From: an uncultured Enterobacteriaceae bacterium | GTDB taxonomy: Bacteria; Pseudomonadota; Gammaproteobacteria; Eutrophobiales; Eutrophobiaceae | Reading direction: 5' to 3' | Assembly (NCBI GenBank): GCA_964392105.1 | Contig: CAYMPA010000002.1 | Span: 1 to 62,196 of the forward strand | DNA length: 62,196 nt | Shown here: positions 29,680 through 35,294 of the stretch, piece after piece | How the letters are laid out: each line of letters opens with the position of its first letter | Position numbering within the stretch: position 1 is the first letter of the stretch | The notes under the pieces: model-generated | What the model saw: the letters and a program-made list of their open reading frames with translations, nothing else | What the model was told of the DNA's origin: nothing | Database searches by the model: none | Translations under genes and position numbers: made by a program

Positions 29680-30915
29680 TTAATATTCATTGTCATTAAT
29701 CATATTATGTATCAATTCATAGTAACGTTTAGCTACAGAGTCCCAGTTATATTTACTATATACACTCTTAATTCCATTTTCGGAAAGTTCTCTGCATATG
29801 TCAGTATCTTTAAGCAATCGCTGAATTGCTTCAGCAAGGGACGTGGAGTCCCCCGGTTTCACCAATAGACCATTTTCACCATCTACAATAATATCCTTAA
29901 TTGCTTCCAATGTTGATGCAACAACAGCACAACCACAACCTAGGGCCTCAATAATTACGAGCCCCAGACCCTCTTGGTCACCAGTAGCATCCACTATTGA
30001 TGGTGTAATGGCTATCATTGCGGATGAATATAAAGCTGGCAATTCTTTTTGTTGAACACTACCAATAAAATGTATATTATTTTCCAATTTATGCTGTTTT
30101 ACTATTTCTTCCAGCTCACCTCGTAATGGACCATCACCAACCAACAACAATTCGACATCTGGTATAAGATTACAAACCTGAGAAATTGCTTCTATCAAAT
30201 ATACAATACCTTTCTTTTCTACTAAGCGGCCAACAAAAATCACCCTGTTGTGTTTTCTTTGTACGCTCTCCACGGACTTGAATAAATCAATCAGGTTAAC
30301 CCCCATTGGAATTACCGAGACCTTTTCGTTATCCATAGACATTTTTTCTAAACAATATTTATGCATATAGTTACTCACTACAGTCACTTTTTTCATTCTA
30401 TTCAAAGTCCAGTTTTTGATTTTCTTTAAAAGATATGACTGTAATGAGAACAAATCACCTCCATGAGAAGTACATAGTATTGGGGGGGATCTTTGTCCTA
30501 TAACCATACAGACAAGCGCGCAAATAAACCCTTGAGGAATTATCCAATGCACATGGATTGCATCGTATTGCGTTGACTTAAGATACTGCCCTAAAGCAAG
30601 CGCTTGAGCAAGAATAAAGAAAGGAACAAGAAAATATAACATCTTGTTCTTACGGATATTCGACATAATACCACCAGAGTATGCAAGAACCTCACACTGA
30701 GGGAAGCAATACATATATCTGTATACTTTTATACCATCGATTATTTCATGTCGTTTTGCACTTTTTGTATGCGGGGCTATTACATCAATATCTAAACCTA
30801 ATTTAACCAGACGCTTACATAACTCTGAAATAAACGGAGGTTCAGTATCATTTGCCCAACGCGGAAATGTTGAGGTTACAACAAGTAATGTTTTTTTTTG
30901 CGTAGAAGAGCCCAT
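29680..30915 (-). CDS. Glycosyltransferase family 4
   Basis: 411 aa. N-terminal LLVVTSTFPRWANDTEPPFI and C-terminal GDQEGLGLVIIEALGCGCAVVAS motif. Confidence 0.8.
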   Translation of the reverse strand: MGSSTQKKTLLVVTSTFPRWANDTEPPFISELCKRLVKLGLDIDVIAPHTKSAKRHEIIDGIKVYRYMYCFPQCEVLAYSGGIMSNIRKNKMLYFLVPFFILAQALALGQYLKSTQYDAIHVHWIIPQGFICALVCMVIGQRSPPILCTSHGGDLFSLQSYLLKKIKNWTLNRMKKVTVVSNYMHKYCLEKMSMDNEKVSVIPMGVNLIDLFKSVESVQRKHNRVIFVGRLVEKKGIVYLIEAISQVCNLIPDVELLLVGDGPLRGELEEIVKQHKLENNIHFIGSVQQKELPALYSSAMIAITPSIVDATGDQEGLGLVIIEALGCGCAVVASTLEAIKDIIVDGENGLLVKPGDSTSLAEAIQRLLKDTDICRELSENGIKSVYSKYNWDSVAKRYYELIHNMINDNEY

Positions 30916-30955
30916 AAGTTAAACTAATTTGGGTATGTTGTTTGCTATAAATAAT

Positions 30956-31825
30956 CTAATTATTTCTTTTTTGATTTTCGCTATAAATTAAAAAAGTAAT
31001 CTGTTCTGATAATAAGCCAATTAAAAAAACAATTACTGAAGTCAGGATCAGTAAAGTACTCATATTTGTAAATCGTCCATAATAAAAATAAGTATATGCA
31101 TAGTAACAAAGCCCTGTAATAAGAATAGCAAAGCTGGCTGGGCCAAATATTTTAAGCGGGGAATATAGCGAAGTAACCCTAAAAATAATTAATAAAAATT
31201 TAAATCCATCTTTTATCAACCTGATATGACTATTACCTGTTCGTTTTTCACATCGTATTGGAACATATTTAATGTTGTATCCAGATCGAAATAGGGCCAT
31301 TGTTATTGTAGTTGGATAAGAAAACCCGTTTGGTAATAAATAGAGAAACTGTTCGAAGATACTTGCTTTTACTGCCCTGAAACCGGAGGTCAAATCAAGT
31401 ACTTCATGTCCAGACATATAACTAGCCAATTTATTATATAAGAGGTTGGCTATATATCTTGGTAGACTTGCATGTGAGCCTTTATCGCGAGAACCGATAA
31501 CCATATCATTCCCTTTCTCAATCTCTTCAAGTAACGTTTTTATATCTTCAGGTGAATGCTGCCCATCGGCATCCATAAAAACCAAGGTATCGCCTGTAGC
31601 GGCACGCGTTCCCGTCTTGATTGCTGCACCATTTCCTTTTGAATATGGGTGACTGATAACTTTTACATCATATTTACTACACACATCTAATGTATCATCA
31701 TCTGATCCATCATTAACGATAATGATTTCTGAGCTCTTAAATAAATCAGCTAATTCCGGCAAGAGTTTTCGTAAAGATTCCGACTCATTTCTTGCGGGTA
31801 GTATAATACTTAGATTGTCATTCAT
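30956..31825 (-). CDS. GT2 polyprenyl-phosphate sugar synthase-like protein (DPM1/GtrB-like, C-terminal TM hairpin)
   Basis: LSIILPARNESE..IIVNDGSDDDT..FMDADGQH catalytic motifs plus two C-terminal TM helices. Confidence 0.75.
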   Translation of the reverse strand: MNDNLSIILPARNESESLRKLLPELADLFKSSEIIIVNDGSDDDTLDVCSKYDVKVISHPYSKGNGAAIKTGTRAATGDTLVFMDADGQHSPEDIKTLLEEIEKGNDMVIGSRDKGSHASLPRYIANLLYNKLASYMSGHEVLDLTSGFRAVKASIFEQFLYLLPNGFSYPTTITMALFRSGYNIKYVPIRCEKRTGNSHIRLIKDGFKFLLIIFRVTSLYSPLKIFGPASFAILITGLCYYAYTYFYYGRFTNMSTLLILTSVIVFLIGLLSEQITFLIYSENQKRNN

Positions 31826-31946
31826 AATATTTCTTTAAATTATATATCAGGTACATTCAGTACATTTGACTTCTTTTCTGCGCTTTTGTATAAATAGTGC
31901 TTTTATGCACACTTGACCTGGCATGTCAATAATCTCTTCTGGCTAG

Positions 31947-34728: not shown

Positions 34729-34824
34729 ACGTCTTCCTCCTAAATATTTATTACTATCCCGATTCCTCTATTGCTCCTAAATTCTTTTTCGCAATTGATT
34801 TTCACTTCTGGTAATCACAATGAT

Positions 34825-34850
34825 AAAAACCCCTCAAAAGAGGGGTTTTT
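34825..34850 (-). terminator. Rho-independent terminator between the two pilin genes
   Basis: AAAAACCCCTcaaaagAGGGGTTTTT lies 22 nt beyond the stop of the proximal pilin. It is nearly identical to the 34261 terminator. Confidence 0.8.
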
Positions 34851-34871
34851 ATTATTTCCATTAATGGTTAA

Positions 34872-35294
34872 TTAACGGCAATTTGAAGGTCTTAATTTTG
34901 ACGCTACAGTGCCGGTATTACATGACCAGGTTATACCACCACCTGTATCAGTCGGTACTAAAATGATAGTTGGTGCAGAAGCGGCTACCTTCGTATTATA
35001 GGTAATTAAGATTGTACCAGAAGCTCCTACTGTAACAGAGGTGACAGCATTACCGTTAATACTGGCCGCCGACGCCATTCCAGCTTCAGTATTGGTCGTT
35101 GGCCAGGTGCCTTCAGAGCCATAATATTCCGCCACCTGTGTTTTAGCTGCTCCTGATAGTCCCATACCTTCAGAGACATGTGCTCGCTTGGTATAATCCT
35201 GATATGAAGGGATAGCGACTGCGGCAAGAATACCGATAATCGCTACCACGATCATCAATTCGATAAGGGTAAAACCCTGTTGTACTTTTTTCAT
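34872..35294 (-). CDS. pilA: Type IVa pilin, promoter-proximal paralogue
   Basis: Leader MKKVQQG, then [27 protein letters not shown]. Same C-terminal disulfide loop as the distal copy. SD is AAGGAG. Confidence 0.92.

Follow-up and report, generated by a model that had tools for sequence, protein, structure and literature searches.

Gene content of the pilin-linked cluster

We analysed a 62,196-nt stretch of DNA (hereafter, the window) from an uncultured Enterobacteriaceae bacterium (GenBank assembly GCA_964392105.1, contig CAYMPA010000002.1), focusing on three genes that lie directly downstream of two type IV pilin genes and may serve to glycosylate the pilins. The gene order on the minus strand is pilS, pilR, pilA1, pilA2, an open reading frame (ORF) for a 629-amino-acid (aa) polytopic protein, and the genes of a 289-aa family 2 glycosyltransferase (GT2) and a 411-aa family 4 glycosyltransferase (GT4). 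An initial annotation of the sequence had read the last three genes as a candidate operon for pilin O-glycosylation, with the 629-aa protein as the periplasmic transferase. All five ORFs, from pilA1 to the GT4 gene, are present on the minus strand at the coordinates it gave, and its pilin, GT2, and GT4 assignments are borne out by Pfam. The peptides that it quoted are also correct, namely, LPGGFIYDDYFNF in the first loop of the 629-aa protein and two Ser/Thr-rich pilin segments.

The first pilin gene, pilA1 (34872-35294), encodes a 140-aa protein of the type IVa major-pilin type that matches the Pilin (PF00114, E 6.7e-25) and N_methyl (PF07963) families, with a leader (MKKVQQG) preceding the mature start FTLIELM and a Cys pair at the C-terminal end. 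Its tandem paralogue pilA2 (34306-34728) is likewise 140 aa long and matches both families. The two products are 84% identical, and the mismatches in their alignment cluster in the Ser/Thr-rich region of the alpha-beta loop. An intergenic gap of 469 bp (33837-34305) separates pilA2 from the gene of the 629-aa protein (31947-33836), which is followed after 121 bp by the GT2 gene (30956-31825) and after a further 40 bp by the GT4 gene (29680-30915). We infer the operon status of this trio from strand and spacing only.

Predicted fold and topology of the 629-aa protein

The 629-aa protein matched no Pfam family at E ≤ 10 and, except for marginal tetratricopeptide repeat (TPR) matches, no NCBIfam model at the same threshold. 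Its membrane part found no sequence match in the PDB, either as a single sequence or as a 38-sequence profile; only TPR matches surfaced. We delimited this part (residues 1-415, nt 32592-33836) with AlphaFold2 models, Foldseek, hydropathy, and alignment. AlphaFold2 modelled the full-length protein, on the 38-sequence alignment, with a predicted local distance difference test score (pLDDT) of 88 and a predicted TM-score (pTM) of 0.84, and residues 1-415 alone with a pLDDT of 87.9 and a pTM of 0.90. Taking the DSSP helices of the model together with hydropathy and the distribution of Lys and Arg, we predict 11 transmembrane (TM) helices and a cytoplasmic N-terminus; the protein is indeed polytopic, with 11 helices instead of the dozen or so first counted. 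The long periplasmic loop between TM7 and TM8 is predicted to contain an amphipathic helix (270-289), followed from within by Y284-x6-P291 and then by H300-D-D302.

Conservation was read from an alignment of 38 homologues, with 31-75% identity to the window protein, in which 48 positions are invariant. The Asp-Asp pair that the initial annotation had noted in the first loop is D34-D35 (nt 33732-33737; triplet D34-D35-Y36), which lies in periplasmic loop 1 and is invariant in 38/38 homologues, as are G26, G29, F31, N38, and N42 of the same loop. Further invariant residues occur mid-domain (W140, P144, N146; Q155, R156, M157; K204, E205) and then at R273, R279, Y284, P291, H300, D301, and D302, with the HDD triplet (nt 32931-32939) in the TM7-TM8 loop. 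The remainder include H350, E353, and S354 as well as E364, R366, N367, Y368, and P370, the first four of this last group sitting in the TM9-TM10 loop, whose low model confidence suggests that it is flexible. On the predicted topology, the invariant residues would be placed on the periplasmic face or close to it, with the exceptions of R176, and of E218 deep in TM6.

Since a full-length Foldseek search was swamped by TPR proteins, residues 1-415 were re-predicted and searched alone. The top 14 matches were then all GT-C enzymes, comprising PglB (6gxc/5ogl), STT3 of the yeast and human oligosaccharyltransferases, and ArnT (5f15), with probabilities of 0.75-1.0 (1.0 for PglB) and query-normalised TM-scores of 0.39-0.53 (up to 0.53 for STT3). 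Below these came unrelated transporters and receptors, except for the GT-C enzyme DPY19 at rank 34. The predicted structure thus agrees with the GT-C fold first proposed. We consider the membrane domain a predicted GT-C domain on the joint evidence of fold, topology, and the acidic loop-1 motif, with no single score being decisive.

The rest of the protein (residues 416-629 plus stop codon, nt 31947-32591) forms an all-helical TPR-like domain according to profile, AlphaFold2, and Foldseek, and is predicted to be periplasmic. In the PDB, the family profile matched consensus TPR proteins (E 3.5e-14) and also the TPR domain of OGT, while Foldseek with the full model returned the OGT TPR domain, Tom70/71, and PilF; the TPR-like tail recognized by the initial annotation is thereby upheld. 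Precomputed Pfam matches in the homologues are to TPR_19 and TPR_16 only (PF14559/PF13432). A Cys523/Cys529 pair, nearly invariant in the 38-sequence alignment, would fit a periplasmic, disulfide-forming location.

The TPR similarity to PilF/PilW, seen with both Foldseek and NCBIfam, and the name "pilus assembly protein PilF" carried by some homologues are what one would expect of a non-enzymatic pilin accessory factor or chaperone (TfpY/TfpZ- or PilF-like), whose TPR domain would serve pilus assembly and whose GT2 neighbour would be unrelated. We regard this as highly improbable, given that PilF is a small lipoprotein without a membrane domain, that the 629-aa protein preserves the predicted GT-C fold with its invariant Asp-Asp pair and invariant residues on the periplasmic face, and that a highly conserved GT2 partner would be left unexplained. 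A PilF-like assembly factor was rejected on the GT-C fold, the conserved putative active-site residues, and the GT2 partner taken together.

The accompanying glycosyltransferases

The GT2 (PF00535, E 1.6e-33) combines a cytoplasmic GT-A domain with two C-terminal hydrophobic TM segments (~225-246 and 255-273), the TM pair from which it had been annotated as a DPM1/GtrB-type enzyme. That reading stands: the closest solved relatives in the PDB are the Pyrococcus Dol-P-Man synthase (5mlz, E 1.9e-19), ArnC (~5e-13), and GtrB sll0501 (8e-11). Because these nearest solved relatives are all polyprenyl-phosphate glycosyltransferases, we assign the pilin-linked GT2 as a predicted polyprenyl-phosphate glycosyltransferase of the GtrB/ArnC/DPM1 type. 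Its best NCBIfam similarities are to AglJ, Dol-P-hexose transferase, and ArnC, all under the equivalog cut-offs.

The GT4 (PF00534, E 4e-43) has a GT-B fold. An orthologue with at least 38% identity occurs directly 3′ of the GT2 gene in only 6/48 of the related loci described below, so we treat the GT4 as an optional add-on, recurrent and outside the core. The three-gene operon of the initial annotation therefore holds in its common strand and tight spacing but not in having the GT4 as a conserved member.

Pilin linkage in other genomes

Co-localisation of the 629-aa gene with type IV pilin genes had been set beforehand as a test of the pilin assignment. We retrieved loci by GT-C similarity alone, five of them close relatives from genomes (single-sequence scan), seven through exact-protein look-ups starting from distant homologues, and 80 metagenomic (29-53% identity). 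Duplicates and the five close genome loci were removed for the pilin and GT2 counts, and pilin linkage was checked in the nearest ~100 loci only. A type IV pilin gene was found immediately 5′ of the GT-C gene, on the same strand, in 60/63 distant loci (30-53% identity, with at least 600 nt of upstream sequence), as had been anticipated. With perhaps a dozen pilin-like genes per genome, chance adjacency would, by an estimate that we have not computed formally, be well under 1%. On the other side, a GT2 homologue lay immediately 3′ of the GT-C gene in 51 of the 67 loci with at least 1 kb downstream. These linked GT2s are 50-62% identical to that of the window, while the GT-C proteins are only 30-35% identical. 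Loci without a GT2 have DegT aminotransferases, WbqC, Wzx-type flippases, methyltransferases, or GT1 directly 3′ of the GT-C gene.

The wider surroundings vary. Among the distant loci with at least 4 kb upstream, pilR was present in 25/39 and missing from 14/39, and sucCD-pilS precede it where the flank suffices. Other backgrounds are a divergent pilB-pilC-pilD block (L052 and Pseudomonas delhiensis, L093), co-directional pilB-pilC (L060), dnaJ (L092), a hydrolase gene (L087), an ABC-F protein gene (L045), and toxin-antitoxin genes (L009, a Gallionellales genome). With several unrelated backgrounds represented, the pilin/GT-C/GT2 linkage is independent of the wider neighbourhood.

Cultured relatives were reached by searches seeded with the L052 protein, from a Pseudomonas-type locus, and with an Acinetobacter protein. 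In P. delhiensis, pilD-pilC-pilB are followed divergently by pilA, a 647-aa GT-C gene, a GT2 gene, and a UDP-GlcNAc 2-epimerase-type gene; Acinetobacter johnsonii and a 6.8-Mb genome have pilA, GT-C, and GT2, then Wzx, ABC-transporter, or GT4 genes. The GT-C family is also present in Acinetobacter towneri, indicus, bohemicus, ursingii, faecalis, portensis, and cumulans, as well as in P. nicosulfuronedens, Variovorax paradoxus, and Niveibacterium. In cultured species, the homologues are annotated only as "hypothetical protein" or "tetratricopeptide repeat protein." No homologue of the 629-aa protein was found on plasmids (tblastn) or in viral contigs. The GT-C domain superfamily as a whole is very large, with 4,304 clusters at 50% identity for E ≤ 1e-30, 12,620 for E ≤ 1e-10, and 28,643 for E ≤ 1e-3.

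The window and P. delhiensis GT-C proteins share 31% identity over 609 residues (E 6e-81), as against 62% for the pilins and 58% for the GT2s, and on these identities the transferase appears to evolve much faster than the donor synthase. This bears on a further explanation, by which the GT-C/TPR protein would be a general protein O-glycosyltransferase (PMT/TMTC- or PglL-like), with pilin being one of many substrates or merely a neighbour co-regulated by PilSR. Its TMTC-like topology would suit such an enzyme, and JGI automatically names many homologues "protein O-mannosyl-transferase," the name under which KEGG lists the orthologue group of TMTC; the size of the superfamily, set beside the number of loci checked for pilin linkage, points the same way. 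Strict pilin adjacency, however, is typical of the dedicated transferases TfpO and TfpW, whereas pglL is unlinked to pilE, and a transferase diverging faster than its GT2 would be expected if it tracked a variable pilin. We consider a general enzyme unlikely.

The pilins encoded beside GT-C genes are enriched in Ser/Thr at mature positions 53, 60, and 71, in the alpha-beta loop region and within its recurring motif S-x-G-x-x-P-[TA]-[TS]-N. As a separate observation, GT-C/TPR paralogues can occur in tandem after pilA in 17 loci, with two copies each except for three in L046, the tandem loci being L001, L005, L006, L007, L013, L014, L019, L021, L031, L032, L046, L053, L054, L057, L063, L067, and L085. 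The two copies in L001 and in L005 are ~27-29% identical over a BLAST match of ~190 residues. Such tandem copies suggest multi-step or multi-site glycosylation.

Intergenic and regulatory elements

Each pilA gene is directly followed by a hairpin resembling an intrinsic terminator, both on the minus strand. That of pilA1 (34823-34852) has a 13-pair stem, ATAAAAACCCCTC...GAGGGGTTTTTAT, and that of pilA2 (34259-34279) a T-run, CCTCTTCGCAGGGG TTTTTTT; the sequence 3′ of pilA2 reads AAAAACCCCTCTTCGCAGGGGTTTTTTT. With a terminator after each pilA gene, the trio would be expressed either by low-level read-through or from a promoter of its own, which may be located in the 469-bp gap. Scans of the window for tRNAs and Rfam families returned none, including in the gap, and a check of the gap for small ORFs gave no credible or conserved one.

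Upstream of the pilins lie the genes of the two-component regulators of pilin expression, assigned from ORF calls and synteny: pilR (35633-36940, minus strand) and pilS (36943-38559, minus strand), the latter adjoined by sucCD. A sigma-54-type GG-N10-GC element, TGGCATGGATAATGCT (35450-35465, minus strand), is located ~155 nt upstream of pilA1 and would be consistent with PilR control. The pattern has 36 matches across the window versus 30.7 expected, which is not significant alone, and no such element was seen upstream of pilA2 or of the GT-C gene. Further away, pilB, pilC, and pilD (50638-54543, plus strand), for the assembly ATPase, platform protein, and prepilin peptidase, indicate that the organism encodes type IV pilus machinery. 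Together with coaE, this block (50638-55153, plus strand) is ~15 kb from pilA; in P. delhiensis, it is directly divergent from pilA.

Other glycan genes in the window

The trio is convergent with a cluster for an ABC-transporter-dependent O-polysaccharide (16776-29536). This cluster comprises Gmd (16776-17810), two GT4s, Wzm (20109-20933), Wzt with a C-terminal carbohydrate-binding domain (20933-22159), a 662-aa methyltransferase-domain protein, a C-methyltransferase, and a 1279-aa WbdA-like polymerase with GT4-GT4-GT2 order (24331-28170). Next to it are two adjacent paralogous polytopic proteins of 543 aa (13540-15171, plus strand) and 516 aa (15183-16733, plus strand), which are 27% identical (E 1e-14) and have acidic first loops, FSDDAMY and FASDSANY, no TPR tail, and no Pfam match. 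A second GT2 of 321 aa (9048-10013, minus strand), with two C-terminal TM segments, is 31% identical to the pilin-linked one. The pair and this GT2 look like a separate Gtr-type side-chain set for the neighbouring O-antigen.

Glycan side chains are classically added by a GT2 working with a GT-C enzyme (PMC11127046), and many related loci continue into glycan clusters, as the window does. Both would be natural if the GT-C/TPR protein and its GT2 formed a Gtr/Arn-type system decorating the O-antigen of lipopolysaccharide (LPS) or another envelope glycan, with the proximity of pilA reflecting a shared island of surface-antigen variability. Pilin adjacency in 95% of loci, over unrelated neighbourhoods, is unexpected for an LPS enzyme, however, and candidates for modifying the O-antigen are already present elsewhere in the window, as a separate set made up of two TPR-less GT-C-like proteins and the second GtrB-like GT2. 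To our knowledge, Gtr-type GT-C enzymes lack a TPR tail. We therefore think a role in LPS decoration quite unlikely, and a Gtr system acting on LPS only was rejected on the near-universal pilin adjacency and the separate candidate set.

A model for pilin O-glycosylation

The cluster is probably a TfpW-type module dedicated to the O-glycosylation of pilin in the periplasm, working from a polyprenyl-phosphate sugar donor by analogy with the systems compared below. Pilin O-glycosylation is the best explanation because the co-localisation test was positive and the neighbourhoods were unrelated; the direct results behind the model are gene content, predicted fold and topology, residue conservation, and the order of the pilin, GT-C, and GT2 genes. 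The core idea of the initial annotation, a GT-C/TPR protein acting with a GT2 on pilin, is thus supported, whereas its counting of the GT4 as part of the module, its DUF1736 signature, and its claim of novelty did not hold up.

In the model, the GT2 would take a sugar from its nucleotide-linked form and load it onto undecaprenyl phosphate at the cytoplasmic face, as do GtrB, ArnC, and Dol-P-Man synthase. The GT4 may, speculatively, add a second sugar in this genome. In Haloferax, the product of AglJ is lengthened by AglG, AglI, and AglE, a parallel that is speculative for the GT4. A flippase would then move the lipid-linked sugar across the membrane, and the 629-aa protein would transfer it to Ser/Thr of membrane-anchored PilA1 and/or PilA2 before assembly. 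The active site would be formed at the periplasmic face by Asp34-Asp35 of loop 1 together with the conserved TM7-TM8 and TM9-TM10 loops, the periplasmic TPR domain would hold the pilin substrate, and the acceptor region would likely be the alpha-beta loop of the pilin.

Two unrelated loci encode a flippase-like protein of the LPG_synthase_TM family (PF03706) near pilA, GT-C, and GT2 (L012, 12125-13036, minus strand; L093, 13721-14629, minus strand). In these two loci it is a candidate for flipping the lipid-linked sugar, and no equivalent was seen in the window.

Several observations weigh against the proposed pilin glycosylation module. Both pilA genes end in terminators and 469 bp intervene before the GT-C gene, and no flippase gene is present in the operon. 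The GT-C assignment has no support from any Pfam, NCBIfam, or PDB sequence match, and its Foldseek E-values are weak (best 1.3e-3), with TM-scores of about 0.45-0.53. Pilin loops rich in Ser/Thr are not a specific sign. The pilin-linked genes border on an ABC-transporter O-antigen cluster, so that, judged from the window alone, they may have a role in LPS modification, and the GT2-coupled subfamily as a whole appears to be known from genes alone.

When pilins are glycosylated, pilus assembly and antigenicity change, as does resistance to pilus-specific phages, with phage resistance having been shown for TfpO and TfpW. If the model is true, a large share of environmental Gamma- and Betaproteobacteria would owe their pilin glycosylation to one conserved two-gene module, and the same module would cover the cultured Acinetobacter and Pseudomonas species whose proteins go by "hypothetical" or "tetratricopeptide repeat protein" names. 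TPR-bearing GT-C protein O-glycosyltransferases such as TMTC, of which no solved structure turned up in our PDB searches, would thereby gain a simple bacterial model as well. The window itself is one ordinary member of a large family, and a specialist familiar with TfpW would not be surprised by it.

More tentatively, and as a single joint proposal that we hold to be possible though short of probable, a very large bacterial family, pairing a TMTC-like GT-C/TPR protein with a conserved GtrB/DPM1-like GT2, would be a pilin O-glycosylation cassette travelling with pilA across Gamma- and Betaproteobacteria, with TfpW as an arabinose-using offshoot and the family as bacterial counterpart, possibly ancestor, of eukaryotic TMTC. 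Were this true, the family would offer a genetically tractable model for how TPR domains select folded protein acceptors. As part of the same proposal, members with a GT4 might transfer a monophosphate-linked disaccharide en bloc, in the manner of archaeal AglJ/AglB pathways.

Comparison with known systems

The GtrA/GtrB/GtrC and ArnC/ArnEF/ArnT systems likewise pair a polyprenyl-phosphate GT2 with a GT-C enzyme, and the window GT2 is related to GtrB and ArnC. They differ in that the acceptor proposed here is a protein and not LPS, that the GT-C protein has a TPR tail, and that the cluster is devoid of a gene for a GtrA- or ArnE/F-type flippase. The TfpO/PilO system resembles the window in its layout, with tfpO directly 3′ of pilA and a product that glycosylates pilin in the periplasm. 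TfpO/PglL-type enzymes carry a Wzy_C/O-antigen-ligase domain and use undecaprenyl-pyrophosphate-linked O-units. An oligosaccharyltransferase of this type was rejected, since the 629-aa protein has no Wzy_C/O-antigen-ligase or other Pfam domain. TfpO and TfpW have been called unrelated in the TfpY paper.

The eukaryotic TMTC1-4 proteins are cadherin O-mannosyltransferases of the GT-C/PMT clan (PMC7801869). Compared by description, they share with our models of the window protein 11 TM helices, a cytoplasmic N-terminus, an Asp-Asp pair in the first luminal or periplasmic loop, an important TM7-TM8 loop with a short non-membrane helix, and a C-terminal, non-cytoplasmic TPR domain (PMC7801869). 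An "HPI" motif is also common to both, with LLFAVHPIHT in TM3 of human TMTC3 and LLWAVHPINLT at residues 138-148 of the window protein (PMC7801869). The JGI name of many homologues speaks for the same likeness. A polyprenyl-phosphate monosaccharide donor would be a further likeness, as inferred for the window enzyme. The substrate proposed for the window system, in contrast, is pilin, and neither PMT_2 nor the TMTC-defining Pfam family DUF1736 (PF08409) is matched by the 629-aa protein, the latter not even at E ≤ 10, so that the TMTC/DUF1736 signature read into its N-terminus by the initial annotation is not borne out. There may be a link between bacterial pilin glycosylation and the eukaryotic TMTC enzymes.

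The closest described system is that of TfpW, the GT-C pilin O-arabinofuranosyltransferase of strains Pa5196 and PA7 (P. aeruginosa/P. paraeruginosa, group IV) (bioRxiv 10.1101/2020.04.19.049825). TfpW is 646 aa long, with a cytoplasmic N-terminus, 11 TM helices by prediction, a DDx motif in periplasmic loop 1, YX6PFX7P in loop 4, and a C-terminal TPR domain that is large and periplasmic, and it was best modelled on ArnT and on the TPR domain of OGT (bioRxiv 10.1101/2020.04.19.049825). Its gene is immediately 3′ of pilA, its deletion abolishes pilin glycosylation, and it modifies Thr64 and Thr66 of the pilin, in the same alpha-beta loop region; homologues beside pilA are known from Azotobacter, Acinetobacter venetianus, Teredinibacter, P. 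indica, and Kingella (bioRxiv 10.1101/2020.04.19.049825).

The window matches this description in several respects. Its GT-C gene, too, comes immediately 3′ of a major pilin gene and has the same orientation, across the 469-bp gap; it shares 11 TM helices, an inside N-terminus, a loop-1 DDx motif, and a C-terminal periplasmic TPR domain, all predicted on the window side; and its matches to PglB, STT3, ArnT, and the OGT TPR domain recall the templates of TfpW. Relatives of the window protein occupy the tfpW position in P. delhiensis (647 aa) and in many Acinetobacter species. It is these Pseudomonas and Acinetobacter relatives that make homology to TfpW, compared here by its published description, likely; TfpW itself (AAM52060.1) and A. 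venetianus WP_130134296.1 were not among the accessions listed for the relatives. Of YX6PFX7P, the window protein has only YX6P, with Q replacing F and H300 at the position of the distal P, and no tfpX-like gene follows the window GT-C gene. The donor routes differ too. That of TfpW comes from a separate D-arabinofuranose cluster (PPPRS/UbiA-like enzyme, DprE1, DprE2), in place of which the window has a GtrB/DPM1-type GT2. No gene of the D-arabinofuranose pathway (PPPRS, DprE1, DprE2) was found in the related loci examined or among the scanned window ORFs, the scan having left out six ORFs of at least 120 aa at 42.6-45.7, 55.2-56.0, and 61.5-62.1 kb.

The initial annotation had considered a TMTC-like pilin glycosyltransferase to be undescribed, whereas TfpW has the same architecture and homologues beside pilA in several genera. 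A TfpW-type architecture for a pilin glycosyltransferase is thus already described, with proof by genetics in the case of TfpW. Our literature searches found no paper on a GT2-coupled, TfpW-like pilin system, and what sets the present system apart is the conserved coupling of a TfpW-like GT-C protein to a GtrB/DPM1-type GT2 instead of a D-arabinofuranose pathway.

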